Shown here in pieces: positions 3,554 to 16,551 of a DNA stretch of 38,198 nt. Position numbers and translations under genes: made by a program. Location: contig DTRN01000059.1 in NCBI GenBank assembly GCA_012965905.1, positions 1 to 38,198 of the forward strand, given 5' to 3'. The DNA comes from Nitrospirales bacterium. GTDB taxonomy: Bacteria; Nitrospirota; Nitrospiria; Nitrospirales; UBA2166. The notes under the pieces are model-generated. The model made no database searches. It saw only the letters and a program-made list of their open reading frames with translations, and was not told where the DNA came from. Positions within the stretch are counted from its first letter, which is position 1. Each line of letters begins with the position of its first letter.

Positions 3554-3847
3554 TCATGGAATGCCGAGTGTGTCGTCGAGAAACGCGATCACATCGCTCC
3601 AGTATGGATCTCTGACTTCGAAGAACAACCGGTGCCCATCACCAATAATGGCATCCTCTGTGATGTCATTGACTCTCACAAGATGGTGACTGCCACTTGT
3701 TGTCGTAATCTCGACAGTATCGCCCACGTTCAGGGTACTCTCGATGCTCAAGGGGTGCGGATCGATGGGTATCTTCGTCGCGCAGCCCACGGAAAACACA
3801 AGGATCACCATCCCGATACCGAATTGCCTCCATAGCTCTGCCCTCAT
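3554..3847 (-). CDS. small putative lipoprotein, unknown function
   Basis: Internal ATG at 3847 of ORF 3554..4021 gives MRAELWRQFGIGMVILVFSVGC-ATK (signal-like helix plus lipobox-like VFSVGC). The 58 codons upstream look non-coding (Arg/Ser/Gly-rich). No family recognised. Confidence 0.45.
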   Translation of the reverse strand: MRAELWRQFGIGMVILVFSVGCATKIPIDPHPLSIESTLNVGDTVEITTTSGSHHLVRVNDITEDAIIGDGHRLFFEVRDPYWSDVIAFLDDTLGIP

Positions 3848-4140
3848 CACATGCCTACTCTTGGTGATGATCCGCATCGGGTAGGCTGACGGGATCGCGC
3901 ATTTCACCGTTCCAGCGTTACTTCGACGATTTCCTGCGCGGCAACTTCCGCGTAATTCCCTGCCGTTCCAATCTTTCAGGTGGTCTTCAAGGACCTTCTG
4001 GATGTAGTCATTCATGGGCATGCGCTACGGGCATCACGATATCGATAGCCTCGATCAGGGTGGTGCTGTCACACTTCTGTCACATTTGGAAGCCGCAGAC
4101 CGCTTAGAGCAGTACGAGGGAGCGTAAGTTGTTGAATTCA

Positions 4141-4188
4141 TTGGTGGCGGTGGATGGTTTCGAACCCCCGGCCAGCGGTTTATGAGTA
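4141..4188 (-). repeat. Partial copy of the 3' half of tRNA-Met(CAT), from the CCA end to the anticodon; distal att-type direct repeat of the island
   Basis: ttggtggcggtggaTggtttcgaacccccggccAgcggTttatgagt at 4141-4188 matches 16221-16268 (ttggtggcggtggaGggtttcgaacccccggccCgcggCttatgagt) at 45/48 positions in the same orientation. Weaker similarity (GCGTAA...GTTGAA) continues about 20 nt to the left of both copies. There is no 5' half, so this is not a functional tRNA. Confidence 0.8.
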
Positions 4189-4399: not shown

Positions 4400-6544
4400 C
4401 TAGATTCCATCCTTGGAATCTCTGAGCACTTTCGCGTCCTTTTTCTCGAGGGCTTTAGGAAAGGCAAGCAGAGCATTCGGATGGCGTTCAGCAATATTCC
4501 CAACGTGGTAGTTATGGCATGATATACACATGTCTCCAGCTTTTTCGGCCACATGACAAGTCACACAAAGGGACTTCTCTATATGGTTAAAGCTGCTTGC
4601 GAAGGTTTGAGGGTCGTTGTCTTCGTACCCTGCCATCACATCTGCTTCTGAATTCAGAACATGACAAGCGTAACAGCCCCTGTCCCTAACAAGGCTCAAG
4701 TGTGGCGAATGGACGAAGGTCGTGAACTTCTGCACATTTGGCACCGGCTGTGCTGTGTGCCACTTCACTTGGGCTTTTTCCGCTCGACTATCCACACTGT
4801 GGCATTTCATACAGACCCCTGGCGCTTTAGCGCCTGAGAGCGTCGAAAATATCTCGTTCACGACATCCGAAGTAGCTGGCTGCTCTGCCAAAGGCGAGAG
4901 ATCGATCCAGCCACGAATGAACTCATCGGCATGACCGGTCGGACGGAACAGGATGGAAAAGTCCGCATCCTGTCGATACCACCCACCCATCTTGACCCAC
5001 CGTTCGCGATCTTGATCTTTACCCATATTTAGATCTAGCTCTTGCATATCAGACATAGGTACCATTGCATGGGCTCTGTGACTTAGCACTTCGGTCGATA
5101 ATTTTGGCAACCATTCTTGCTGCGCTGCTTGGATAACCTCAATGGGAATATGTCCTGTCAAATTCCCGAGTTTGCTATTGCTGTATGGCTCATTCGCTAT
5201 CTTGCTGAGCCGCGAAACGTAAGCTTCTTGTCCTTTAGAGACCATATCGTAGAACAGCCCCTTTATCGCCCATATAATCTGAGCGATAGCGGCAAGTTCT
5301 TCCTCGGTGGCATCTGATAAATCGGTGAATTCGTCAAAGTCACCGACCGTTTCCAGGTAGTCAACGATAGTCCCATCGGTGTACAATAGAAGCTTCATGA
5401 AGGGGGTCAGGCCTTGTTCGACATTGTAGTCAGCGGGCCATTCTCCGACCGAGATCCCTTGCTCTGTTAGTACGTCAACATCCAATCCTGGAAGTCTGAA
5501 AAAAGGGATGCCTCGTGCCCCTGCCAGACCCTCTCCCTCAATCTGGTGTACATGGCATGCAGCACATGTCGCATCAAATGATCCCACCCGCATGGTTTCG
5601 CCAAGCTGATCCATCATATGGCAGGCCGTGCAAGTGGTCGGGGCCTCATCCTTGAAATCGCCAAGAAAGTGCTTCGCGAGATGGGAATTATGATCAAAGG
5701 CTATTTGCGTACGGCGCTCAGTGGGATAGCTGGAAAACTGTGGATGCCCCTTCGTCAAACTCGAAAACTTTATGATGTGGCAAGTTTGGCAACGCTGGTT
5801 ATCCATAGTCATCAGTTTGAAGTCTCTACCATGATGTTCTGAGTGACACCTTGCGCAAGGCACCTCGCTACCTTCCGTGTACAAGGTCCCTGGAAGCCAG
5901 TCTGATGATGCTAATAAAACCGGGGTCTTCTCAGAGAACGGAGCCTCTTTCAAGCGTTCTGTGATCGAGGTCAAGGCTTCAGTGGACCGACCATGAGCCT
6001 GCAATGGCTGCTCTCCAACTTGATGGCAGCTCAGGCAAAGTTTGCTTCCTTTAGCCTTCGACTCTGAAGCATAGATCGATGCCACCCAACTGATTGGTCC
6101 TTCGTGGGCCGCAGCATGACAAGAGGCACAGTCCTTACCTATAGCACCGTGATTTATGGATAGCTCACCTGGGGAAAAAAACTCTTGCGCATCTGAACCG
6201 AAGAGGACAAGGAGTGATGCCCCAATTGTGAAAGCAACCGTCCAGACCGTGGCAATTCCTCGCTTGGCTCGAAGACTCCTGCTGGGCTGACACTTGGGTA
6301 TGTGTACGGAGCAGGTACCATTCGGAAGGGGGCCCTGGGTACATTTCCCCTTGCGGTCGGAAGAGCGGGTACAAGACCACCGATCGCCATCCTTTAGTGG
6401 GAGGCATTCTGTGGTCGCCAGACATTGCCCGTTCTTGTCAGGGCCAATGTGACAAGCCCAACCCTCGGCAGCCCATCCACAAACCCAGTTCTGGGTTGGT
6501 CGTTCATATTGACTGTTCTTGAATCCATAATCCTGTAACTTCAT
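4400..6544 (-). CDS. membrane-anchored decahaem c-type cytochrome with a Cys-rich N-terminal module
   Basis: Ten CXXCH motifs: CASCH, CLSCH, CARCH, CQTCH, CTACH, CAACH, CMKCH, CYACH, CVTCH, CISCH. There is a haem-free insert of about 200 aa between haems 6 and 7. The N-terminal 85 aa carry 8 Cys, followed by RSLRAKRG and one TM helix (IATVWTVAFTIGASLLVLFG). The ATG lies 2 nt after the stop of the upstream gene. Confidence 0.9.
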   Translation of the reverse strand: MKLQDYGFKNSQYERPTQNWVCGWAAEGWACHIGPDKNGQCLATTECLPLKDGDRWSCTRSSDRKGKCTQGPLPNGTCSVHIPKCQPSRSLRAKRGIATVWTVAFTIGASLLVLFGSDAQEFFSPGELSINHGAIGKDCASCHAAAHEGPISWVASIYASESKAKGSKLCLSCHQVGEQPLQAHGRSTEALTSITERLKEAPFSEKTPVLLASSDWLPGTLYTEGSEVPCARCHSEHHGRDFKLMTMDNQRCQTCHIIKFSSLTKGHPQFSSYPTERRTQIAFDHNSHLAKHFLGDFKDEAPTTCTACHMMDQLGETMRVGSFDATCAACHVHQIEGEGLAGARGIPFFRLPGLDVDVLTEQGISVGEWPADYNVEQGLTPFMKLLLYTDGTIVDYLETVGDFDEFTDLSDATEEELAAIAQIIWAIKGLFYDMVSKGQEAYVSRLSKIANEPYSNSKLGNLTGHIPIEVIQAAQQEWLPKLSTEVLSHRAHAMVPMSDMQELDLNMGKDQDRERWVKMGGWYRQDADFSILFRPTGHADEFIRGWIDLSPLAEQPATSDVVNEIFSTLSGAKAPGVCMKCHSVDSRAEKAQVKWHTAQPVPNVQKFTTFVHSPHLSLVRDRGCYACHVLNSEADVMAGYEDNDPQTFASSFNHIEKSLCVTCHVAEKAGDMCISCHNYHVGNIAERHPNALLAFPKALEKKDAKVLRDSKDGI

Positions 6545-6546
6545 GG

Positions 6547-7386
6547 TTAGGAACTACTCTCCCTGTACGCCGACGCGAGAGCTCCGTGAATCAGTGAGAG
6601 GATTAAAAGGCTGTAGCTCAGGGGAATGTGGATAAAGAGCCAATATTTGAGCACCAGCTGGTGCGCATTGTGATAATCCAGGTCATCTTTGGCCAAAATA
6701 AGAGTTCCAATTTCTTGAGCAATTTTCCGTTCGCTCTCATTGAAATAGCGATCTTGCGATTGCAGTTTGGTCAACAATTCATCACGAGGGCGATGAGACC
6801 CTATCAGATGCCAGAAAAAATTCTTGGGTCCTTCCAAAAAAGGTATCACCTGATTTGTCAAGACACGTCGGCTGGAGAAATCGGCAATCGTTGTGGAACC
6901 CATCTCCGCAGCTGAGCGCACGAGAAGGTCTTCGACGTCCTCACGAAGATGCTTTCGCATCGCTGGAATTCTCTCAAAAATGACCTCTCTACCCCTCATT
7001 GCAAGTCGCCGTGAATACCATCTCGTCAATCCAATTCCTGTAATTCCGCTCCCAGCAACCACCACGTAAAGCAGCGCGAGCGTTCCCTCAATCCAACCAT
7101 TGGGGACATGCAGCCCAATATGAATAGCGAACAGGACAAGAGTGAGATATCCTATGTAAATATGAAATTGCAACCAGCTGGATGAAGTTCCTAAGGGCAG
7201 GAAAGGCAACTTTTTTCGGACATTGTAGCTAGCCAAAGCCAACAGGACAAAGAATAGAAGCCAGCCAGAGAAGAACACCGTGCGATACAGGGTTACAGAG
7301 TAGGCGAAGTGGATTCCGACGATCAGAATAGAAAGAGCACCGCAGATGACAAGATTGCGCCATCGGCGAGATGCAAAGGAGGTCAC
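6547..7386 (-). CDS. 5-TM integral membrane protein with two H-x13-H helices (putative dihaem cytochrome b-like electron-transfer subunit)
   Basis: ORF 6547..7494. The likely start is the GTG at 7386, which overlaps the upstream stop (TAGTG). An ATG at 7455 is an alternative start. Hydrophobic helices: LVICGALSILIVGIHFAY, FFSGWLLFFVLLALASY, WLQFHIYIGYLTLVLFAIHIGLH, GTLALLYVVVAGSGITGIGL and, after a soluble loop of about 130 aa, YWLFIHIPLSYSLLILSLIHGAL. TM3 and TM5 each have two His separated by exactly 13 residues. Confidence 0.8.
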   Translation of the reverse strand: MTSFASRRWRNLVICGALSILIVGIHFAYSVTLYRTVFFSGWLLFFVLLALASYNVRKKLPFLPLGTSSSWLQFHIYIGYLTLVLFAIHIGLHVPNGWIEGTLALLYVVVAGSGITGIGLTRWYSRRLAMRGREVIFERIPAMRKHLREDVEDLLVRSAAEMGSTTIADFSSRRVLTNQVIPFLEGPKNFFWHLIGSHRPRDELLTKLQSQDRYFNESERKIAQEIGTLILAKDDLDYHNAHQLVLKYWLFIHIPLSYSLLILSLIHGALASAYRESSS

Positions 7387-9098
7387 TAATTGGGTCCGTT
7401 CGATAGCGAAAATAAATCTGACATATCTATCCGCTGTAAGGCGTCGTGGGGACATGCGCGTTGGCAAGCCGGCCCACCCAGCTGGTCCACACAAAGATCA
7501 CACTTCGTAGCTTTCAAAATGGGAGCGTGGGTGCGCTCGTCGAGAATTAGGTGTCCGTTCTCATCGCGAATGTCAACCATCTGAATGTTGTCATACGGAC
7601 AGCTATTCGCACAGGTGCTACAACCTACACAAGTGGTGTCGTCGATGACAACGTGCCCGTGAAACCCCTCACGGTGGATTGCCCCTGTAGGACATCCAAT
7701 GAGACAAACAGGATCGACGCAATGCATACACGCATTGGCTATCAAATACTTGCCATCCCGCTTGCCATGCCGGGTGAAACGGGGATTATTTTCGTGAGCG
7801 GTAGCACAGGCACGCACGCAATCATCACAGCCAGTACAGCGATCGAGATTGATCATCATGGTGGACGTGCCGTTGATAAACCGCTCATCCACAAGGAATT
7901 CCAGGAAGTCTGGATCAATTCTCCTTTCGTGTTCCCGATCCCTTTGCACGGGAACATGCCTGGTATTCGAGGGGACAAGCGGTCGGAGTTGCGCAGATGG
8001 TAAAGAGGGAAGCACCAAAGATTCAATCACGTGAGTTGGTACCAAGAGAATGTCCACGTATCCAATAGCACGCAGCGTGTGCTTAAGGGATATCCGGGCT
8101 TCGCTTTGCCAATTATGCTCGATTTCTTCAAGGCCGTAGATCTTGCCTCGACCAAGGTAAGTGAGCGTGCGGTGTCCGTGCCCGAACTGCTGACTCAACC
8201 GTACGAATCCAGAGCGAATCAGAATTAATCCATTGGGATAGTGCCCTTCTTCCGCAATAATCGGCTCGTGATCCAGGCGTTCCGCCGCACTGCGACTCAT
8301 GATTGCCTTATACGGACCATACCAGTCGAAATCCCCATAGCTCTGGAATTCAACTTGATTAGCCACCTCTTCCAACTGCTCCAACGTCAGGTGCTGGAAG
8401 AGCGGCGTTTGTAGAAGGTGGACTTTCAGGTTCCTTTCACGATAGCGAGCGTCAATATCTTCCTTCAACCGCTGATCAAAGAGGCGTAAGCGCCTTAGTC
8501 CTTGCCAGCGAATTTCCAAAAGCTCTGTCTCTTGGTCAGCAACAATAGTGGCGGTCCGGGCAACGCGACCAAGTGCAGAGATTTCTCCAAACAGGTCTCC
8601 CACTTCTATTCGGTTGGTTTCATACTCCCCCAGAATTACGGGGAGGTCTTGCAAAAACACATGAGCATTCCCCGCTTTGTCATATCTGGTTTTGACCCGG
8701 GAAACCCCTGTATCTGGCGAAAGAGTGCGTTCTTCCGGCTGCGTGGGATTGCGCCATAACTGGGCGATGGCATTGAACAAACCTTTTCTCCGAGGCTCTT
8801 TTCGGCCCAAGATCGACTTTGGTAGATTGAGGAAAACCTGGACTGATCCGGACATGATAAAGTATGCAGAGTTTCCATAATCGCCTTCTCGCACCACAAT
8901 GTCCCCCGCTCGGTACCGAAGAATGCGAGTGTCATTCAGCAGGATCTCTCGTAACGGAGCGTGGGAAGGAAATTTCGCCGGGTCCATATGGCTGAAAGGA
9001 GGGAATGTTAAAACTCTATCGACATCCTCTTCACTCGTTTCATGACTAAACGGCATATCCAAACGAGCAGGACGTTGGATGCGTACATTCAGTGTCAT
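7386..9098 (-). CDS. cytoplasmic fusion protein: two cyclic-nucleotide-binding (cNMP/CAP-effector-like) domains plus a DmsB/NrfC-type four-cluster [4Fe-4S] ferredoxin domain
   Basis: ATG at 9098 with an AGGGGG RBS. First cNMP domain: ILRYRAGDIVVREGDYGNSAYFIMSGSVQVF ... FGEISALGRVARTATIVADQETELLEI. Second, more divergent cNMP-like barrel: GLILIRSGFVRLSQQFGHGHRTLTYLGRGKIYGLEEI. The C-terminus has 16 Cys in four motifs: CTGCDDCVRAC, CMHCVDPVCLIGCP, CVGCSTCANSCP, CDLCVDQLGGPACQRACP. There is no twin-arginine signal at the N-terminus. Confidence 0.88.
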   Translation of the reverse strand: MTLNVRIQRPARLDMPFSHETSEEDVDRVLTFPPFSHMDPAKFPSHAPLREILLNDTRILRYRAGDIVVREGDYGNSAYFIMSGSVQVFLNLPKSILGRKEPRRKGLFNAIAQLWRNPTQPEERTLSPDTGVSRVKTRYDKAGNAHVFLQDLPVILGEYETNRIEVGDLFGEISALGRVARTATIVADQETELLEIRWQGLRRLRLFDQRLKEDIDARYRERNLKVHLLQTPLFQHLTLEQLEEVANQVEFQSYGDFDWYGPYKAIMSRSAAERLDHEPIIAEEGHYPNGLILIRSGFVRLSQQFGHGHRTLTYLGRGKIYGLEEIEHNWQSEARISLKHTLRAIGYVDILLVPTHVIESLVLPSLPSAQLRPLVPSNTRHVPVQRDREHERRIDPDFLEFLVDERFINGTSTMMINLDRCTGCDDCVRACATAHENNPRFTRHGKRDGKYLIANACMHCVDPVCLIGCPTGAIHREGFHGHVVIDDTTCVGCSTCANSCPYDNIQMVDIRDENGHLILDERTHAPILKATKCDLCVDQLGGPACQRACPHDALQRIDMSDLFSLSNGPN

Positions 9099-9130
9099 AG
9101 CATCGTACCCCCTATCTAAATTTATCGATC

Positions 9131-10189
9131 CTATTTTCCAGGCGGAGCTTTCCCGGGTTTTCCTTTGTACTTATCGGCTGTGGGAAGTACCTTGTCTATT
9201 GCTGCCCACTCGCTTCCGTCGTAGTTATTCGCTACCTTTTGAGCGACAGCCCGAATTTTGTCGGCTGCTGGCGTAATCTGGGCTTCTTGGTTGGCGCCCA
9301 ACTTGACCTTTGCAGCAATGGCCAACATTTCCTTAAGTTCAGAAATTGTGACGAGCCCATGAATTTTTTTTAATTTACCCATTGCTTTCCCAACGCGCTT
9401 CACCATCGCCTCCAAGAATGTACCTTTCTCGGTGGCCTTGGACAGGGCACGGAGGCTGTACTCCAAGTCAAGTGACGCTCCAACCACGTATAACATCCGT
9501 TTACGCTCAGACGAAGCTTCCGTGTTCTTTTTTCCTCCCGAGCTGAAAAAATTATGGCGGACTTCGCCTTGCGACCACGCTACGAGATCAAATTCGCTCC
9601 CTGCTTTATGTCCTCCTACGTTGACCAGATGCTCGTTTGGTATCGTGTGACATTGGAAGCAGTTCGCCGCTAATCGGTAGAGTTCAGGAGGTCGGATCAT
9701 GCCGGAGGCCTTTATCGCTGCCAAGCGTTTAGCCTTGTGTTCAGGGGTTTCCATCTCACGTGTGACTGTCTTACCCCCATAATCACTGTGCACTTTAAGC
9801 CAATCCTTCGCGGGACCATGACAGGACTCACAACTAATTCCAACAATCGCCTTGCTCTTCCCTTTCTTGATGCCCGAGGTGAAGTGGCAATTCAAACACG
9901 CGCTGTCCTTTTTCATGCGTTTGACGCCCAGCTTTTCTGCGACCTCCTTGGCCTCTTTCTTACGCGGCAATTCTTTAAAGCTCCTGGAATGTTTGGTTTC
10001 TCTCCAGGTGTGCACCTCAGCCTTATGGCATTCGCCACATTCCTTCGGTCCCACGATTTTCTTGGGATCTTTTTCAGGCATGGCATTGGATTCAACACCC
10101 GATCCCGCCGCCAATAAAAGGACGATGGCTCCAATGGCAAGTCCTACCCATCCTAGCCATGATTGACCCCGTTCCTTGACTTGGTTCAT
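9131..10189 (-). CDS. secreted tetrahaem c-type cytochrome (c554-like multihaem family) with a helical, Lys-rich C-terminal half
   Basis: ATG with a GGAGGAG RBS. Signal or anchor segment WLGWVGLAIGAIVLLLAAGSG. Four CXXCH motifs (CGECH, CLNCH, CESCH, CFQCH). About 150 aa of haem-free C-terminus ending KYKGKPGKAPPGK. Confidence 0.9.
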   Translation of the reverse strand: MNQVKERGQSWLGWVGLAIGAIVLLLAAGSGVESNAMPEKDPKKIVGPKECGECHKAEVHTWRETKHSRSFKELPRKKEAKEVAEKLGVKRMKKDSACLNCHFTSGIKKGKSKAIVGISCESCHGPAKDWLKVHSDYGGKTVTREMETPEHKAKRLAAIKASGMIRPPELYRLAANCFQCHTIPNEHLVNVGGHKAGSEFDLVAWSQGEVRHNFFSSGGKKNTEASSERKRMLYVVGASLDLEYSLRALSKATEKGTFLEAMVKRVGKAMGKLKKIHGLVTISELKEMLAIAAKVKLGANQEAQITPAADKIRAVAQKVANNYDGSEWAAIDKVLPTADKYKGKPGKAPPGK

Positions 10190-10261
10190 GTTTTACTCCT
10201 CCATTTAGACCATTGCGGCAATTCGCTTCCTACTCGTTCAGGGATTTCCTGCGCGAATCCG

Positions 10262-11569
10262 TCATGCATCTAGCGTCACATGCCCTTTTGGTATGGCTAT
10301 GCAAGGGAAGCAAGAGCCGGCCTCGGGTGCAACACCAGGCTCAGTCATGTAGGTGACGTCCCCTGCTTTAATTGCAGTGAGACATGTCCCGCAACTGCCA
10401 GCACGGCAGCCGAAGTCAATTTGGACAGCGTTCCCTTCAGCAAGCTCTAACAGCGAACCGTGCTTTTGATCCCATTGGCATCGTTTCCCTGTTTTCGAGA
10501 AAAAGACTTCAACTTGCGTTGCATCAGCTAGTCGTGGTGGTGGCGCGGCAGTCTTTTTTACCGTAGCCGAGCCAAAGGCTTCAAAAAAGATCTTGTCCTC
10601 TGGAATCCCCCACACCTTAAGTTGCTTGGTCAACGAGTCCATCATCGCCGGTGGCCCACAGAGGAAGAACTCATAATTGTTAGACGGTAATAGGCCTCGT
10701 AGCAAGTCCACGCTGACCCGTCCCGAATGATCGTAATCCTCCCCAATCACATCCGCGTCAGAAGGTTGGCTATAGCATACATGCACGTGCACATTGTGAT
10801 ATTGGCGATTCAGTTGGGCCAGATGATCCTTCATAATATGCTCGGTACCATTGGATACCCCATAGAATAACCATACCTCACGGGTTGTAGCAGCACCCTC
10901 AGTAATACTGTTGAGCATGCTGAGAAGGGGTGTGATGCCTACACCACCCGCAACAAACGCAACTGGAGCGGCGCTTGTCAGATCGAGAAAAAACTTTCCG
11001 CTCGGCGCTTTGACGTCGAGGATATCACCTTCCTGGAGATGATTGTGAAAGTACGAGGAGACCAATCCTGCCGGCACATCTGGGTTATCGCTTGGTGAGA
11101 GTTCCCGTTTAATGGTGATGCGGTAATAGTCTGATTGAGTGGGGCTGTCGGAGAGGGAATAACATCGCACTACCGGTTTTGTGGTGTCGGGAATATGAAG
11201 CTTAAAGACTAAGTGTTGGCCAGGTTGGAAGCGAGGTAGCGGCTTTCGATCATGAGGTGCAAGGTAGAATGAATAGACATCGTGACATTCACGTACTTTT
11301 TGCCGAACCACGAATTTTCGGAACCCTCCCCAAAATCGTTTTTCGTCTTCCTGCCCAACTTTAAGTGTTCTGGCAGCTTCTACCCGACAGCGCAACAACT
11401 CTAGCGCTAGAGTGCGTCGTTGTCGTTCATAGGTCACACGATGCCATGTAGAAACCAAGAATAGGACTACTTGCGCCAAGAGGGCGCCAATAATTATTAC
11501 GCCAATGGTCTGTACTATCACTGCCACGAGCTTAAGCCCTGAGATAGGAGGGGCATCTTTGCGCTCCAA
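10262..11569 (-). CDS. membrane-anchored ferredoxin-NAD(P)+ reductase-type flavoprotein with a C-terminal plant-type [2Fe-2S] domain
   Basis: N-terminal TM helix (LKLVAVIVQTIGVIIIGALLAQVVLFLV). FAD motif RCYSLSD. NAD(P)H motif GGVGITPLLS. FLCGPPAMM. C-terminal CRAGSCGTCLTAIKAGDV...C (CX4CX2C...C). The start codon is non-ATG (TTG at 11569, or GTG at 11527), so the 5' end is uncertain. Confidence 0.85.
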   Translation of the reverse strand: MERKDAPPISGLKLVAVIVQTIGVIIIGALLAQVVLFLVSTWHRVTYERQRRTLALELLRCRVEAARTLKVGQEDEKRFWGGFRKFVVRQKVRECHDVYSFYLAPHDRKPLPRFQPGQHLVFKLHIPDTTKPVVRCYSLSDSPTQSDYYRITIKRELSPSDNPDVPAGLVSSYFHNHLQEGDILDVKAPSGKFFLDLTSAAPVAFVAGGVGITPLLSMLNSITEGAATTREVWLFYGVSNGTEHIMKDHLAQLNRQYHNVHVHVCYSQPSDADVIGEDYDHSGRVSVDLLRGLLPSNNYEFFLCGPPAMMDSLTKQLKVWGIPEDKIFFEAFGSATVKKTAAPPPRLADATQVEVFFSKTGKRCQWDQKHGSLLELAEGNAVQIDFGCRAGSCGTCLTAIKAGDVTYMTEPGVAPEAGSCFPCIAIPKGHVTLDA

Positions 11570-11609
11570 TCAAAAAGTTTGCAAAAGAGAATCAGGCGGC
11601 GACGTTTCG

Positions 11610-11625
11610 AGCAACCAGCAGCCCA
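11610..11625 (-). promoter_or_regulatory. candidate sigma-54 (-24/-12) promoter upstream of the reductase/tetrahaem/FeS/b-type/decahaem genes
   Basis: The minus strand reads TGGGCTGCTGGTTGCT, matching TGG-N8-TTGC-W of the consensus TGGCACG-N4-TTGCW with correct spacing. It lies about 40 nt upstream of the TTG start at 11569, inside the only long (227-nt) intergenic gap of the cluster. The match to the CAC part of the -24 element is poor. Confidence 0.3.
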
Positions 11626-11796
11626 TCAAAATGTATATGGTGCCCCGAGCGATACGTCGGCCGTCAACTCAAACTGTTTCACGTGAAGGTGGCTGGTTGG
11701 CAATTAAATAGGACCCTCGAGTATGCTGGCGGCTTAAAAGTGCTTTTGGCTGCTACTCCCGGCACGGTCCTTAGCAATCAATAGCACCTTCTATTT

Positions 11797-13302
11797 TCAA
11801 AACTTCATGAGTAATTCGAGGCGGGCACCATAGCTTAGATTGCGATCTTCCTGCTTTTCACCAAAGAAATCAACTCGTGGGATAAAATGGTGGCCGATTG
11901 CATGTTGATAACGTGCCGCCGCAGCAATGGCGCCTCGGTTAGACAATGGAGTTCCAGTGACCGTATTCTTGCGGCCTCCTACTTCCATCACAAGCTGCCG
12001 ACGGCCGCCATGGAAAAACATTTGATGTCCCAAGCTTCCGCCTGCCGAGTCATCAGCCTGGTTGCTTAGTACAGGTCTAAAACGCCCAAGCCCTACGGCT
12101 TCAAACAAGATACCAGTCCGGCCTAATGGTCCCCCTTGATCAGGGCCACGAATCGCTGAGGAGAACTGATCAATCCCCCAGTATCCATTGAGATAAACGA
12201 GATTGTGGGTGCGTGGTGGTGTAAAGGAAACCTGGCCAGATAACAGTGTTCCTCGGCTCGTTTGTTGCGTCTCTAGATCCGAGGGTATTGATGTATTAAC
12301 CGCCAAAGTCGTATTGAAAAACCCAAATCGCTGAACTCCTTGAATTCCTGCGAAGTACGCGTCACCTGTCACATCACCCGACTCGATGTACACTAGATCT
12401 ACGGAAATTGTGCTGAAAGGAAAATCTGTTTCAGTAAACAAACCGAATAGCTGTGCTTCGCGATCGAGGCGATTATCGTCTCGGTATATGTTGTCCCAGC
12501 CGTAGAGGGCAGTGAGGCGGGCATTCGATGTTCCTGGAAGCTGGAGGTTGTTGCGGACCAAGCCGACGGCGTCAGTATTTCCAAGCCCGCCGGTGCTTAT
12601 TAAGAGACCTTCCTGGAAAAGTAGTGGTTGACGACCGACGGAAAACCCGATATCCAGTGCCCTAGTGTCGCCTTCGTCTAGGCCAGGGAATATCTCGCCA
12701 AAATCTCCTTCAAAGAACAATGTTCTTACCACAGCGTTGAGCTCATCCTCAAAATCTTTCTCTGGCTCAAAGAGATTCCCACTGAATCGATTATCACGAT
12801 CCAGGGGACGAAATGCGACGAGGATGCGTTCCGTACCCGATAACTTCAGATTGCCGAAAATGTCGAGGCGATTAGCCCATTCGGATGTACGAGTGTCATC
12901 GGGCATTTCACCACCCGCCATAAAACCACGCTCAAATGTTTGTACCGCCGTTCGGTATTCCCCGAATACCCATAGGGACGGCCGCCAGACGGCACCAGTC
13001 GGGAGTGTGAATTCTGGACCGAGTGCGCCGGAGTCTAAAAACCTATCCCCAAATTCCAAGAACAACCGGGGCCTTTGGGGAACTTCTTCAATCTGAAGAG
13101 GTAGGGATTCGTCGGACAACCGACTTGCTGATTCGTCCTTTGATTCTTCCTGATGCTTGTTGTCGTCTTCGCTTGTTGCACCGCTCGCTTGCGACTCTGC
13201 ATGAAAGGCGCTGACCTCTCCCACCCCCAAAACCGGAACAGCCGCGAATAACAAGCAGGCGTACACGGCAACAAGGAAATGTACTGATGCCCGGTTATTC
13301 AT
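11797..13302 (-). CDS. putative outer-membrane beta-barrel (porin-like) protein
   Basis: Signal peptide MNNRASVHFLVAVYACLLFAAVPVLG. An acidic linker, then about 400 aa rich in alternating aromatic/Gly/polar beta-strand patterns. C-terminal ...YGARLELLMKF ends in Phe, as in the OMP beta-signal. No CXXCH. Family not recognised. Confidence 0.65.
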   Translation of the reverse strand: MNNRASVHFLVAVYACLLFAAVPVLGVGEVSAFHAESQASGATSEDDNKHQEESKDESASRLSDESLPLQIEEVPQRPRLFLEFGDRFLDSGALGPEFTLPTGAVWRPSLWVFGEYRTAVQTFERGFMAGGEMPDDTRTSEWANRLDIFGNLKLSGTERILVAFRPLDRDNRFSGNLFEPEKDFEDELNAVVRTLFFEGDFGEIFPGLDEGDTRALDIGFSVGRQPLLFQEGLLISTGGLGNTDAVGLVRNNLQLPGTSNARLTALYGWDNIYRDDNRLDREAQLFGLFTETDFPFSTISVDLVYIESGDVTGDAYFAGIQGVQRFGFFNTTLAVNTSIPSDLETQQTSRGTLLSGQVSFTPPRTHNLVYLNGYWGIDQFSSAIRGPDQGGPLGRTGILFEAVGLGRFRPVLSNQADDSAGGSLGHQMFFHGGRRQLVMEVGGRKNTVTGTPLSNRGAIAAAARYQHAIGHHFIPRVDFFGEKQEDRNLSYGARLELLMKF

Positions 13303-13349
13303 GGGTCTTGGTTGTTAATTAGAGAGACGGTATGGACGCAAAGCCCTGG

Positions 13350-15164
13350 TTAATATTGGTTCTTGTGAACATCATGAACATCAAAGGCTATATCACGCTC
13401 CCATAGCACCACATGTCCAGCTAACACCCCATCCGCAACTTTCCTAGGGCTCATGCCGTAGTCAAAGCCAACATCTTTGATCTCGTTGATCAAATTGACC
13501 GGCACCATACCGACAATCAACTCAATATGAGCTTTGTAAGGTCCCCTCAGGGTCAACGCTAACCCTTCCACCTCATATGTCGCCCACCGACTGCCGTTGG
13601 GTTCGATCATCATCCGATGTTTTCGCACATTGACTGGGCGTCCGATTAACACATTGGACTGTGTTAAAGGACGCAAAAATGGTAGCGGATCAAATGATGT
13701 GTTGACGGATAATACCTGCTCGCTCTCACTTCCACGGAGATTTCGTGTAATAAATTTAGACTGAAGATTGAACAGATATCGATCAAGAGGCAGTTCACCG
13801 TTGTGCACGTAAACAGAGTGAATATCCCGCAGATCTCCGTTTGGGTCGGCATCTCCAGATTTGAAAACAGAGGTGCCATCCCGATCCGAAACCGTGACGC
13901 GCAGATAGACAAGACGCTCGGCGTCAAAGCCCGTAGGCACGCCGTGTCCATCCGTCCCACTTTTCACCTGCACTCGGAAACGGAGACCATCTCCATCCGC
14001 CTGATCAGTCACGATCTTGCCAAGTCGGAACCCTTCCTGCAACACCTTTTTCCTTTGCAAACCATACTCATCTAATAATGCAAACTGATCGTCAAGAATT
14101 TCACGAGCATCATAGCGGTCGTCTGTAGAAGACCATCGATCTGGAAACGCGTCATCGTCAGGATCCTGGTCTTCAAACTCGTCTGTTCCCCAACCAGCCT
14201 GATGATCGAAGGCTAGCCATTCCCGAATAGTCGCGAATTCCGCAGCGTCTATATTGTGCGGGAAAATCCCGGGATGTATGACAGAATGGTCGGGCCCAGG
14301 GAACATGTGATTGGTGCGTTTCCGAGATCTGGTTTCTACCCCACCCACTCGGGCGGCAGATGCATGAACATAGCCCGATGACTTTCCCGGCTTCCGGCCC
14401 ATATGGCAGTCCTGACAGGTGATTCCCTGCCTGGCAGCTGGCGAGGTCTTATATTCGCTGAAGGCTTCTTCCAGCCGGAACCCGTTAAGCAAGTTTACGT
14501 CATGGCATGAACCGCAGAATCCCGGTTCGCTCAGCGACGGAAAAAGTTTCACCTCACCGTGGATGGCTCGTCCGACTTCGCCGCGTTCTGGATTGACCTG
14601 ATACTCGTCACTTCCTAACACACGCTTGAGCTCCTCGTTGCCTTTGGGGCCATACACTGGGTCAAATAGGTCGCCTTCTACAATCTTGAGGCGTCCACTC
14701 TCTTTCCCGTAGGCTTGATCAACTCGATGGCAGACGACGCACGTGATGCCTTCACGAGAAGTAGGATGTCGGTCGATGTTGCTCATAAATAGGGGTTCCC
14801 CCAAATTCATTCCTACTTGAGTATGACAGCGAATGCAGAAGTCCCCATTGGTACCGTTGGTGAGCTTAAGAATGGTGCCGTGCATCGCGTTGAACACCGG
14901 GCTCATCTGCGCATATGCATGAGGAGAAACCGACCACTCTCGGTAATGATCCGCATGACATGTTTGACACGTTGAGGCTGATGGGTAACGGTTTTCCAAG
15001 AATAATTTTTCATGGGCAGCTTCGGCTGATTCTTCTAGAGTTTCTGAAGATTCCTCCTGAGATAACGCCATATCGATATATGCGAAGCACAGCACCCCTA
15101 TCAGAAGCAAAACCAAGGGAATCCCAATGCGCCTGGAAAGCACTATCAAACTTGTAAATGCCAT
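13350..15164 (-). CDS. secreted pentahaem c-type cytochrome with a large haem-free C-terminal domain
   Basis: ORF 13350..15170. The ATG at 15164 is preceded by GGGAGG. Signal-like segment IGIPLVLLLIGVLCFAYIDMALS. Five CXXCH motifs in the first 260 aa or so (CQTCH, CIRCH, CVVCH, CGSCH, CQDCH), then about 340 aa without haem motifs. Confidence 0.9.
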   Translation of the reverse strand: MAFTSLIVLSRRIGIPLVLLLIGVLCFAYIDMALSQEESSETLEESAEAAHEKLFLENRYPSASTCQTCHADHYREWSVSPHAYAQMSPVFNAMHGTILKLTNGTNGDFCIRCHTQVGMNLGEPLFMSNIDRHPTSREGITCVVCHRVDQAYGKESGRLKIVEGDLFDPVYGPKGNEELKRVLGSDEYQVNPERGEVGRAIHGEVKLFPSLSEPGFCGSCHDVNLLNGFRLEEAFSEYKTSPAARQGITCQDCHMGRKPGKSSGYVHASAARVGGVETRSRKRTNHMFPGPDHSVIHPGIFPHNIDAAEFATIREWLAFDHQAGWGTDEFEDQDPDDDAFPDRWSSTDDRYDAREILDDQFALLDEYGLQRKKVLQEGFRLGKIVTDQADGDGLRFRVQVKSGTDGHGVPTGFDAERLVYLRVTVSDRDGTSVFKSGDADPNGDLRDIHSVYVHNGELPLDRYLFNLQSKFITRNLRGSESEQVLSVNTSFDPLPFLRPLTQSNVLIGRPVNVRKHRMMIEPNGSRWATYEVEGLALTLRGPYKAHIELIVGMVPVNLINEIKDVGFDYGMSPRKVADGVLAGHVVLWERDIAFDVHDVHKNQY

Positions 15165-15507: not shown

Positions 15508-16207
15508 AGAAGGAAGCTCAACTCCATTAAGACAGCAGACCTGGAAGAAGCGAGGAAAGGTTTGTTTGCCAACAAGCTTACCCTTCAAAGGGTCAACCGA
15601 TATATGGCTAGGTTGCCGTGTAAGCTGAACCTGGCGGTTCGTGCTGGTAAATTGCACGGCAACCTAGTGACGAAGCTGAAAATGTATAAGGAGCCTCAAG
15701 GGAAAACGAGATTTCTCTCACCCGAGGAGGAGTCCAAGGTAATGGCCGCACTAGGTCCCATATATGGCCATTGGGTGGGGTTGGCCATTCACACGGGTAT
15801 GAGACAGGCGGAGCAGTTTTCATTCTGATGGGAGAATGTTGATCTGGAGCGCAGGATCAATACGCTACCAGTACTTCTATGCACGTAGCTGGATGCCTGC
15901 AGTGCAGGAGGGAGGGATTGAGTGGATAACGTGGCATGATCTACGCCATACGTTCGCGTCTCGCCTGGCTATGAGTAGTGCGACTGAGGAGACGATAGCC
16001 GCCCTCATGCGCCATAGTAGTAGTGCATTGGTAAAGCGATATGCACATTTTTCGCCGTCGTATCTCCAGGAAGCCGTTGAATGGGTATCGAGCTTTGGTC
16101 GGGCCACGAACTCAGCAGAACGTGCGCCGCAAGAAGACCCGATTTCAATCCTAACCGTGACTGAGACCAGAATAGCAGGGGATCAGGAGAAGGTGGACGT
16201 TGCGTAA
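15508..16207 (+). pseudogene. tyrosine recombinase (phage-type integrase) remnant: N-terminally truncated, with an in-frame stop, an internal deletion and a frameshift
   Basis: Frame 1: ...LQRVNRYMARL..NLAVRAG...FLSPEEESKVMAAL...LAIHTGMRQAEQFSF-TGA-WENVDLERRINTLP. The frame then switches to frame 2: ...AVQEGGIEWITWHDLRHTFASRLAMSSATEETIAALMRHSS..LVKRYAHFSP. Catalytic Arg (TGMR), HxxR (HDLRH) and Tyr (RYAH) are recognisable. Only about 45 aa separate Arg-I from HxxR, where about 100 or more are expected. The open frame starts only at 15508. Confidence 0.8.
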
Positions 16208-16221
16208 ACCGTTGAAAAGAT

Positions 16222-16297
16222 TGGTGGCGGTGGAGGGTTTCGAACCCCCGGCCCGCGGCTTATGAGTCCGCTGCTCTACCAACTGAGCTACACCGCC
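16222..16297 (-). tRNA. tRNA with CAT anticodon: elongator tRNA-Met, or possibly tRNA-Ile2 (lysidine); not an initiator
   Basis: The reverse complement GGCGGTGTAGCTCAGTTGGTAGAGCAGCGGACTCATAAGCCGCGGGCCGGGGGTTCGAAACCCTCCACCGCCACCA folds as a cloverleaf: 7-bp acceptor stem, GCTC/GAGC D stem, anticodon loop CTCATAA, GGGGG/CCCTC T stem, encoded CCA. G1-C72 is paired and there is no GGG/CCC anticodon stem, so it is not tRNA-fMet. Confidence 0.9.
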
Positions 16298-16473: not shown

Positions 16474-16551
16474 GGTCCCATCGTCTAGCTTGGCCTAGGA
16501 CGGTGCCCTCTCAAGGCACAAACACGGGTTCGAATCCCGTTGGGACCACCA
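16474..16551 (+). tRNA. tRNA-Glu (anticodon CTC)
   Basis: GGTCCCATCGTCTAGCTTGGCCTAGGACGGTGCCCTCTCAAGGCACAAACACGGGTTCGAATCCCGTTGGGACCACCA. Features: 7-bp acceptor stem, GTGCC/GGCAC anticodon stem with loop CTCTCAA, ACGGG/CCCGT T stem, encoded CCA, and the GTCTAG...CCTAGGAC D-arm typical of tRNA-Glu. Confidence 0.92.

Follow-up and report, generated by a model that had tools for sequence, protein, structure and literature searches.

The ptdABCDEFG operon of a Nitrospirales tRNA-Met island and its predicted path for electrons across the cell envelope

The 38,198-nt contig DTRN01000059.1 of a Nitrospirales bacterium (assembly GCA_012965905.1), hereafter the window, carries on its minus strand, between positions 4400 and 15164, seven genes with 19 c-type haem motifs that can be identified as the ptdABCDEFG operon, a cluster already named in a preprint. 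With a probability that we put at roughly 0.6, this operon specifies a quinone-independent chain, regulated by cyclic nucleoside monophosphates (cNMPs), that would carry electrons from NAD(P)H across the inner membrane to a periplasmic and outer-membrane module. NAD(P)H would reduce the flavin adenine dinucleotide (FAD) and then the [2Fe-2S] cluster of the membrane-tethered PtdC, and the electrons would pass to the four [4Fe-4S] clusters of the cytoplasmic PtdE, whose N-terminal cNMP domains would gate or tune the flow. Two bis-histidine b-haems held between transmembrane (TM) helices 3 and 5 of PtdF would carry the electrons over the membrane, the ten bis-histidine c-haems of the membrane-anchored PtdG would accept them in the periplasm, and PtdD (four haems) and PtdA (five haems) would pass them on, PtdA working with the barrel PtdB. 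The oxidant at the end would be periplasmic or at the cell surface, for example Fe(III) or another oxidised species. Cofactor motifs, topology signals, gene coupling and a gene fusion are read from the sequences themselves; the order of transfer is what we infer.

Identity and conservation of the seven-gene cluster

Inspection of the open reading frames (ORFs) of the window places the seven genes where a sequence-only reading of this DNA had put them, and that reading's inventory of seven genes, 19 haems and their cofactors was right: the ORFs, the Pfam domains and the counts of CxxCH motifs (five in ptdA, four in ptdD and ten in ptdG) all agree with it, and a motif count found no CxxCK or CxnCH variant in the module. 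The translational coupling of the last three genes is likewise as described, with a 1-nt overlap at the ptdE/ptdF junction (TAGTG, the GTG being the start of ptdF at 7386) and a 2-nt gap at the ptdF/ptdG junction (TAA-CC-ATG).

What does not stand is the claim that the module is unrecognised. The preprint of Elbon et al., 'Novel Alphaproteobacteria transcribe genes for nitric oxide transformation...' (bioRxiv 10.1101/2023.11.21.568154), named the cluster ptdABCDEFG, ptd standing for 'penta/tetra/deca-haem', and put forward the same porin-cytochrome hypothesis. It describes PtdA as a pentahaem protein with a beta-sandwich, PtdB as a porin, PtdC as an FAD/NAD(P) oxidoreductase, PtdD as a periplasmic tetrahaem protein, PtdE as a cNMP-binding 4Fe-4S protein, PtdF as a ferric-reductase-like TM protein and PtdG as a decahaem protein, and the roles it suggests are extracellular electron transfer by a porin-cytochrome complex or else a part in the nitrogen cycle. 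Its Table S7 includes the Nitrospirales genome UWMA-0121 from a hydrothermal plume, contig DTVA01000013, and the window is 99.76% identical to DTVA01000013.1 over 20,676 nt. A look-up with the flanking DUF3386 protein led to the same contig (our locus L088) and to five siblings, the window being 99.76-99.86% identical to these six contigs over 14.7-20.7 kb, and its gene content and order are those of the published PtdA-G, the same seven proteins in the same sequence. Because the preprint names the cluster and its Table S7 lists a near-identical contig, the present locus is best described as a rediscovery of an operon named earlier, including in this Nitrospirales population; among the papers searched, none other than that preprint uses the name Ptd.

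Nothing found here differs in kind from the published operon, although several details are revised. PtdE is predicted to carry four [4Fe-4S] clusters where two were stated, PtdG is predicted to be TM-anchored with a cytoplasmic domain of eight cysteines where it was described simply as periplasmic, and the range of hosts is much wider than the 'marine or high salinity' settings given in the preprint. To these we add the 18-strand type of PtdB, the island context, a reduced variant, the phosphate-binding cassette of PtdE, a PtdE-PtdF fusion, a linkage to cyclase genes and the presence of the operon in soil Verrucomicrobiota. Two published gene sets were considered as matches and set aside. The verrucomicrobial cluster of a porin and multihaem cytochromes of He et al. 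2017 (PMC5615132), also a candidate novel porin-cytochrome system in Verrucomicrobia, combines a periplasmic octahaem cytochrome with a porin of at least 20 strands and, unlike ptd, has no flavin, iron-sulfur (FeS) or b-type genes; the Nitrospirae multihaem genes of Meier et al. 2019 (PMC6850669) encode unrelated Geobacter/Shewanella-type and Cyc2 cytochromes.

A genome scan with PtdE found relatives in 284 species-level genomes, and a search that read every sequence returned 553 representative PtdE clusters at E<=1e-30; the locus counts given here come from 80 fetched loci. Of these, 43 lie in Verrucomicrobiota, 12 in Planctomycetota, 8 in Alphaproteobacteria, 4 each in Acidobacteriota and Myxococcota and 3 in Nitrospinota, with one or two each in SAR324, Bdellovibrionota, Omnitrophota and other Proteobacteria; the ptd genes are co-conserved in at least 10 phyla. 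Searched with the seven proteins by tblastn, the 80 loci yielded PtdE in 80, PtdF in 78, PtdD in 68, PtdG in 67, PtdC in 63, PtdA in 44 and PtdB in 41. The order ABCDEFG of the window recurs in 13 loci and the arrangement cba|DEFG in another 13; E-F-G is collinear in 67/67 loci, and A and B are adjacent and co-oriented in 37/39. All-versus-all clustering of the ORFs of the 80 loci showed only the seven ptd families to be common to at least 39 loci, with no eighth conserved gene such as an iron transporter or a secretion component; the next family reaches at most 12/80 loci, and some of these next-commonest families are artefacts of antisense ORFs in GC-rich genomes. The haem numbers are kept as well, at five in 41/42 homologues of PtdA, four in 59/67 of PtdD and ten in 60/64 of PtdG. 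The possibility that unrelated redox genes came to lie side by side on the island by chance has nothing in its favour except that island cargo can be mosaic. The co-occurrence of seven families across phyla, the absence of which the sequence-only reading had itself named as a refutation, together with the recurrent gene orders and the conserved haem numbers, is evidence on which we regard chance juxtaposition as excluded for every practical purpose.

The ecological range of ptd is wider than marine or saline. The isolates behind several of the loci from Verrucomicrobiota and Acidobacteriota bear the labels SMAG, MFD or palsa, which we take to denote soil, peat and freshwater surveys. One ptdEFG locus (L032) is assigned to an 'uncultured Bifidobacteriaceae', a Gram-positive family without an outer membrane and, to our knowledge, not known for c-type cytochromes; this assignment is probably a binning error.

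Table 1. Coordinates of the ptd genes and of other features, in the window unless another locus is named.
Feature	Coordinates	Strand	Description
ptdA	13350-15164	-	secreted pentahaem cytochrome c, 604 aa
ptdB	11797-13302	-	outer-membrane beta-barrel, about 18 strands in the model, 501 aa
ptdC	10262-11569	-	N-terminal TM helix, Hmp-type FAD/NAD(P)H reductase, C-terminal plant-type [2Fe-2S], 435 aa
ptdD	9131-10189	-	tetrahaem cytochrome c, c554 fold family, signal peptide or anchor, 352 aa
ptdE	7386-9098	-	cytoplasmic; two cNMP-binding domains and predicted DmsB/HydN-type four-[4Fe-4S] domain, 570 aa
ptdF	6547-7386	-	5-TM inner-membrane protein, cytoplasmic helical domain of about 120 aa, GTG start, 279 aa
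ptdG	4400-6544	-	TM-anchored decahaem cytochrome c, 714 aa
ptdG, residues 1-95	6260-6544	-	N-terminal part with the 8-Cys repeats
tRNA-Met(CAT)	16222-16297	-	integration site, attL side; ARAGORN; Rfam tRNA 67.6 bits
Broken tyrosine integrase	15562-16207	+	two ORF fragments; Pfam Phage_integrase C-terminal fragment, 2.4e-9
Partial tRNA-Met copy	4142-4187		direct copy of the tRNA 3' half, attR-like, about 46 nt
Direct repeat	4107-4187 and 16187-16267		contains the partial tRNA copy
155-aa ORF	3554-4021	-	no Pfam match
tRNA-Glu(CTC)	16474-16551	+	adjoins tRNA-Met
Right flank	16684-38198		chromosomal genes
GAF/sigma-54 activator	34507-36825		ordinary chromosomal flank
Cyclase genes, examples	L043 5312-7201; L067 5171-6925; L080 5596-7386	-	also in five more Planctomycetota loci
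Reduced ptd variant	L083 8130-15929		also L084
Lineage-specific neighbours	L007 1003-2157; L014 16090-16680	-	L007 and about 10 Chthoniobacterales loci; L014 and 5 others

The predicted path from NAD(P)H to the periplasm

The proposed point of entry, PtdC, matches the Pfam families FAD_binding_6 (2.9e-11), NAD_binding_1 (7e-20) and Fer2 (5.5e-8) as well as the reductase region of the flavohaemoprotein family NF009805 (251 bits, residues 73-336), and its translation contains the motifs RxYS, GGxGxxP, CGPPxM and CX4CX2C...C. No quinone-reactive subunit of the NapC/CymA, NrfD or cytochrome bc type reaches threshold anywhere in the module in Pfam or NCBIfam, in accord with the earlier statement that its inner-membrane part is not CymA/NapC-, NrfD- or bc1-like.

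PtdE, which has no signal peptide, matches cNMP_binding (1e-21) and the Fer4 and 4Fe-4S dicluster families in Pfam; against HydN it scores 65.8 bits for a cut-off of 260, a match of the HydN/DmsB/AegA type that holds at the level of the domain only. Because its 16 cysteines fall into four ferredoxin motifs (CxxCxxCxxxC, CxxCx4CxxxCP, CxxCxxCxxxCP and CxxCx8CxxxCP), and because 16/16 are invariant in 79/79 homologues, PtdE is predicted to carry four [4Fe-4S] clusters. The first cNMP domain contains a canonical phosphate-binding cassette, FGEISALGRVARTAT (family pattern FGE[IL]AAL..R.PRTAT), in which G171 and E172 are conserved in 79/79 homologues and R181 in 78/79; the cassette of the second domain is degenerate. 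In 8 Planctomycetota loci the gene immediately upstream of ptdC, in divergent orientation, encodes a class III adenylate/guanylate cyclase (PF00211, E 1e-17 to 1e-19), and some PtdE proteins (for example P0241, 854 aa) have two N-terminal FHA domains. The cyclase neighbours, the FHA-bearing homologues and the lack of a signal peptide point to regulation of PtdE, and the cyclase genes would fit control by cyclic nucleotides. At 1234 aa, the homologue P0338 far exceeds PtdE in length and apparently carries extra regulatory sequence.

The translation of PtdF could start at 7494, although we take GTG 7386 as the true start because the consensus of the homologues begins MxxFAxRRW. On TM3 the protein has an H-x13-H pair, H75/H89, conserved in 75/76 homologues, and on TM5 a second pair, H253/H267, conserved in 72/76. 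The AlphaFold2 model (predicted local distance difference test, pLDDT, 90.3) has five TM helices, and both the model and the positive-inside rule have TM3 and TM5 run from the inside to the outside. As placed in these sequences, the histidine pairs could hold one haem near each membrane face, which would make PtdF a di-haem-b relay. In Pfam, PtdF matches DUF4405 marginally (27.7 bits for a cut-off of 26.7), and proteins of that family have been shown experimentally to bind haem b (PMC11334425). We did not file PtdF under the ferric-reductase domain (Ferric_reduct, E 3.5), since a Foldseek search with the confident model gave no significant match. One homologue of 843 aa (P0247) is an in-frame fusion of PtdE and PtdF with both histidine pairs intact, which argues that PtdE and PtdF touch each other and that the N-terminus of PtdF is cytoplasmic; a second apparent fusion, P0283, was discarded as frameshift junk.

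PtdG begins with a domain of eight cysteines (residues ~13-90), which contains two G..C..GP...G.C.....C.P repeats and is followed by a single TM helix (~97-117) and by periplasmic clusters of six and four haems, split by a haem-free insert of ~240 aa. Ten conserved distal histidines are available for its ten haems. The eight N-terminal cysteines are conserved in 64/65 homologues and are among the best-conserved parts of the protein, and because basic residues follow the domain, before the TM helix, it is predicted to be cytoplasmic. The domain might bind Zn or an FeS cluster; it has no Pfam match at E<=10 and is not mentioned in the preprint's description of PtdG. PtdG as a whole reaches no family at its cut-off, has no match to the DmsE/MtrA family TIGR03508, and gave nothing significant in sequence and profile searches of the PDB. 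The tetrahaem cytochrome PtdD matches the Pfam family Cytochrome_C554 (2e-15) and has four invariant distal histidines (67, 134, 194, 212).

Which parts of the chain may belong together is illustrated by a reduced form of the cluster, found on a Nitrospira-like contig of 2.48 Mb (L083). It encodes PtdA (73% identical to that of the window), PtdB (63%), a 155-aa protein, PtdD, PtdF and PtdG, with ptdA and ptdB overlapping by 4 nt; PtdE is absent, the 155-aa protein keeps from PtdC the TM helix and the Fer2 domain but not the FAD/NAD module, and PtdG (639 aa) is without its 8-Cys domain. No tRNA adjoins the cluster, whose neighbours are genes for a glutathione peroxidase and for a heavy-metal P-type ATPase. 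The joint loss of these three cytoplasmic elements in a single lineage suggests that they work as one input module, and that PtdF, PtdG and the part of PtdC that remains would form the minimal transmembrane core.

The outer-membrane pair, the direction of flow and related systems

The translation of PtdA has candidate starts at 15164 and 15170, of which ATG 15164, 6 nt after the Shine-Dalgarno sequence GGGAGG, is preferred. Its five CxxCH motifs lie within residues 66-254 and are followed by a C-terminal domain of ~350 aa, and an alignment of homologues shows six conserved histidines outside the motifs. This layout, an N-terminal pentahaem part with a beta-rich C-terminal domain, is shared with the pentahaem c552 of T. 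tepidum (PDB 5ze8; E 1.6e-8 over 123 residues, a distant match, with a common H-x-x-P-T-G motif in the alignment) and with MccSep/ExtKL (PDB 9wt8, E 0.03; NF040886, 38.6 bits for a cut-off of 250, E 4.8e-10); among solved structures these are the only relatives of PtdA, the second just barely so. Other families score below their cut-offs against PtdA, namely DmsE/MtrA (TIGR03508, 31.9 vs 192.2), TorC (16.6 vs 478) and NrfH (23.3 vs 134), and the score for OmcA/MtrC (TIGR03507) is 15.9 bits for a cut-off of 209.3. The whole-protein score for NapC/NirT (PF03264), 24.9 bits, nominally exceeds the cut-off of 24.1, with no individual stretch passing; the best region is residues 213-261. At E<=10, Pfam gives nothing for the C-terminal domains of PtdA and PtdD, for PtdB or for the insert of PtdG. 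The sequence-only reading had reasoned that a clean fit of the cytochromes to known enzyme families with unrelated functions would refute the conduit. This check does not refute it: none of them reaches a curated cut-off for an enzyme or for Mtr, and Pfam and NCBIfam show no match to an NrfA- or HAO-type catalytic family. Because the conserved distal histidines suffice for bis-histidine ligation of all 19 haems, the sequences suggest that the cytochromes act as wires rather than catalysts.

PtdB, with a signal peptide, a disordered and acidic N-terminal part and phenylalanine as its last residue, finds no match in Pfam, NCBIfam or the sequences of the PDB; MtrB_PioB gives no match even at E<=10. 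Its AlphaFold2 model is an all-beta barrel of ~18-19 strands (pLDDT 85.9; predicted template modelling score 0.79), and the best Foldseek matches are the major outer-membrane protein (MOMP) of C. jejuni (5ldv, E 1.4e-12), AlgE (3rbh) and OccK/OprD, with a chitoporin also found, all of them 18-strand channels. We estimate that the unobstructed lumen of an 18-strand barrel measures ~2-2.5 nm, and less with in-folded loops, which would be tight for an insertion like that of MtrA. The modelled barrel thus weakens the analogy with Mtr at the outer membrane, and PtdB is therefore more probably a dock or substrate channel for PtdA than an MtrB-like sheath round a haem wire.

These features bear directly on whether ptd is a true Mtr-like conduit, in which PtdA would sit in PtdB and pass electrons to acceptors that are insoluble or outside the cell (Fe(III)/Mn(IV) minerals, humics or electrodes) in dissimilatory extracellular electron transfer, a proposal that we consider possible and somewhat doubtful. 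The position of a multihaem gene directly before a barrel gene, as in 37 of the 39 loci and with overlapping frames in the reduced variant, is the arrangement that marks mtrAB, pioAB and omaB-ombB; every haem looks bis-histidine; and many polar and charged residues of PtdB are invariant among homologues, more than expected of a general porin and fitting a specific protein interface. In addition, ptdAB is transcribed at ~500-900 fragments per kilobase per million (FPKM) in an anoxic zone with Fe reduction (bioRxiv 10.1101/2023.11.21.568154). However, a barrel of ~18 strands with AlgE, OccK and MOMP as neighbours compares poorly with the 26 strands of MtrB, no protein belongs to the MtrB_PioB, DmsE/MtrA or OmcA/MtrC families, PtdA has no lipobox, and the cluster holds no gene for an extracellular or lipoprotein cytochrome or for secretion. 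The hosts, moreover, come from groups taken to be mostly aerobic.

It is also worth considering that PtdA may be a periplasmic reductase or oxidase for soluble sulfur, nitrogen or metal species, with PtdB admitting the substrate and PtdC-G doing no more than supplying or removing electrons. The only characterised relative of PtdA is the pentahaem polysulfide reductase MccSep/ExtKL, which is periplasmic and for which the substrate route through the outer membrane is unknown (bioRxiv 10.1101/2025.11.18.688581). PtdB resembles substrate-specific 18-strand channels; PtdA has one conserved histidine beyond five distal ligands, an invariant M255 and near-invariant K154, Y84 and Y152; and the preprint links PtdA to COG3303, the NrfA family (bioRxiv 10.1101/2023.11.21.568154). 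Nonetheless, mature PtdA has no cysteine outside its haem motifs, its gene has no in-frame TGA, and the Cys239/Sec325 site of MccSep, including the haem-ligating cysteine, is thus absent from this very distant relative. PtdA also has no CxxCK motif, all its family scores lie far under their cut-offs, and its at least five conserved candidate distal histidines permit full bis-histidine ligation. A catalytic PtdA therefore strikes us as rather unlikely.

Several observations weigh against the proposed chain from NAD(P)H to the envelope. At the outer membrane, the concern of the sequence-only reading that the barrel might prove to be a solute porin too narrow for a cytochrome is partly borne out, in that its structural neighbours are substrate channels and MtrB is absent from the 50 Foldseek matches listed. 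Because of these neighbours, and because no extracellular or lipoprotein cytochrome is encoded, electron passage across the outer membrane is putative, the adjacency of ptdA and ptdB being the one thing that points to it. Furthermore, about half of the loci show no ptdAB within the part that was fetched, and the outer-membrane pair may thus be accessory. At the inner membrane, only 10/61 relatives of PtdF match DUF4405, with 4/61 matching Ni_hydr_CYTB and 2/61 Ferric_reduct, which makes for weak family membership, and PtdF has no solved relative in the PDB (best Foldseek E 0.59, nothing in a profile search). The order PtdC to PtdE to PtdF could also be otherwise, as PtdC may reduce PtdF directly, in the manner of NOX, with other electrons perhaps entering separately through PtdE. 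Tmc and Hmc of sulfate reducers such as Desulfovibrio have an FeS/b/c layout and carry electrons inward to sulfite reduction, and by this analogy outward flow would not be guaranteed. The preprint itself says of Ptd that its function 'remains completely unknown' (bioRxiv 10.1101/2023.11.21.568154).

The sequence-only reading held that the direction of electron flow cannot be read from the DNA. That view is now weakened: the design of the reductase, the membrane potential and hosts that are mainly aerobic all favour outward flow without proving it. We lean towards a net outward flow because reductases of the PaaE/Hmp type (FNR-Fer2) normally oxidise NAD(P)H, because the membrane potential would aid export, and because the hosts are mostly aerobic, with Verrucomicrobiota, Planctomycetota, Acidobacteriota and Alphaproteobacteria taken as largely so. 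The reverse, in which electrons from donors in the periplasm or outside the cell, such as Fe(II), Mn(II), reduced sulfur or minerals, would enter through the cytochromes and reach FeS carriers and NAD(P)+ in support of lithoautotrophy in plume Nitrospirales, Nitrospinota and SAR324, is in our judgement improbable. The operon is indeed present in chemolithoautotroph lineages and in a hydrothermal-plume population, and Tmc/Hmc are a precedent for inward complexes of c-, b- and FeS-type carriers. However, with Fe(II), Mn(II) or nitrite as donor the reduction of NAD(P)+ (about -320 mV) runs strongly uphill, the membrane potential opposes inward flow, the cluster has no energy-coupling subunit, and the reductase type would have to run against its normal direction. 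Likewise, 43/80 carriers are Verrucomicrobiota and 12/80 Planctomycetota, groups taken as mainly heterotrophic.

The proposed NAD(P)H-fed chain shares features with several known systems. As in MtrCAB, PioAB, MtoAB and OmaB-OmbB-OmcB, a multihaem gene adjoins a barrel gene, and bis-histidine chains suit long-range transfer; the barrels of those systems, however, have 26-28 strands where PtdB has ~18, and ptd has no surface lipoprotein cytochrome. Furthermore, systems of the Mtr type are fed by a quinol dehydrogenase (CymA, ImcH or CbcL), whereas in ptd the electrons would come from flavin and FeS carriers in the cytoplasm through a relay of b-haems. In this respect it resembles NOX, FRE, FRO, MsrQ-Fre and DUF4405 systems, with two histidine pairs of spacing 13 on two TM helices and a reductase partner of the FNR type, and, as in NOX and the ferric reductases, the export of cytoplasmic NAD(P)H electrons is proposed to be independent of quinones. 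PtdF nevertheless differs from these in its five TM helices and 120-aa cytoplasmic insert, its reductase partner stands alone as a protein tethered by a TM helix and has an additional [2Fe-2S], and ptd adds a four-cluster FeS protein and 19 c-haems. With Tmc/Hmc it shares periplasmic multihaem c, membrane b-type and cytoplasmic FeS components and no need for a quinone; unlike them it has no CCG-domain protein, and the matches of PtdE to HmcB/DsrO are generic (38-48 bits for cut-offs of 200-420).

These comparisons invite a more specific proposal, which we offer tentatively and would not yet bet on: that ptd is a cNMP-gated exporter of NAD(P)H electrons to the envelope, a modular counterpart of NOX and ferric reductases with five FeS clusters, two b-haems and 19 c-haems, which would serve reductive iron acquisition or extracellular redox chemistry and would spread horizontally as a cassette of ~11-12 kb through at least 10 phyla, largely in aerobic groups. 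If this were so, ptd would form a class of trans-envelope electron transfer that is new in its mechanism and not related to Mtr, Pcc or Cyc2. Its quinone-free, cNMP-controlled export would open a new way into the extracellular or periplasmic redox chemistry of bacteria and could account in part for iron reduction not yet assigned to any system in soils and in oxygen-deficient waters. Among multihaem clusters without an assigned function the operon is in any case one of the more widespread, found in soil Verrucomicrobiota and Acidobacteriota as well as in marine Nitrospirales, Nitrospinota and SAR324 and in the Alphaproteobacteria of oxygen-deficient zones. The present value of the analysis is a sharper, more testable model of a genuine and already published operon.

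The tRNA-Met island and its flanks

The label of 'island' given to this region by the sequence-only reading is justified, as a tRNA-Met gene with a broken integrase on one side and a repeat of the tRNA on the other bracket exactly the seven ptd genes. The integrase remnant adjoins the 3' end of tRNA-Met and has in-frame stops, with its HDLRHTFAS and KRYAHF boxes kept, and the tRNA part of the direct repeat differs at a few positions in an alignment inspected by eye. Since the ~12 kb between the island ends hold only the seven ptd genes, the operon is the sole cargo of this tRNA-Met island in this Nitrospirales population. Because the integrase is broken the island is probably fixed; an empty tRNA-Met site was found in none of the six sibling contigs, all of which carry the island. 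Beyond its tRNA part the repeat continues for ~35 nt into the integrase gene, at its 3' end ('...GCGTAA'), and positions 4107-4141 look like the tail of a second, older integrase, which suggests tandem or successive islands at tRNA-Met.

Searches for regulatory signals in the window added little. A scan for promoters and terminators gave counts no higher than in shuffled sequence, a search for sigma-54 promoters stayed at chance level with none upstream of ptdA, and an Rfam scan found only the two tRNAs and no riboswitch.

To the left of the island lies a MacAB-type efflux system, and the 155-aa ORF between its MacB-like permease gene and the left repeat may be a remnant of an older island. 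The right flank encodes a DUF3386 protein, an RCK K+ channel, PspA, a DUF4178 protein, a low-molecular-weight phosphatase, a Rieske protein, 6-phosphogluconate dehydrogenase, phosphoglucose isomerase, an amidase and a beta-propeller protein. In other lineages the operon has neighbours of its own (examples in Table 1), which include a lipoprotein-like gene without a family match, a gene for ResB-like cytochrome c biogenesis and a gene for a secreted MsrA with a signal peptide.

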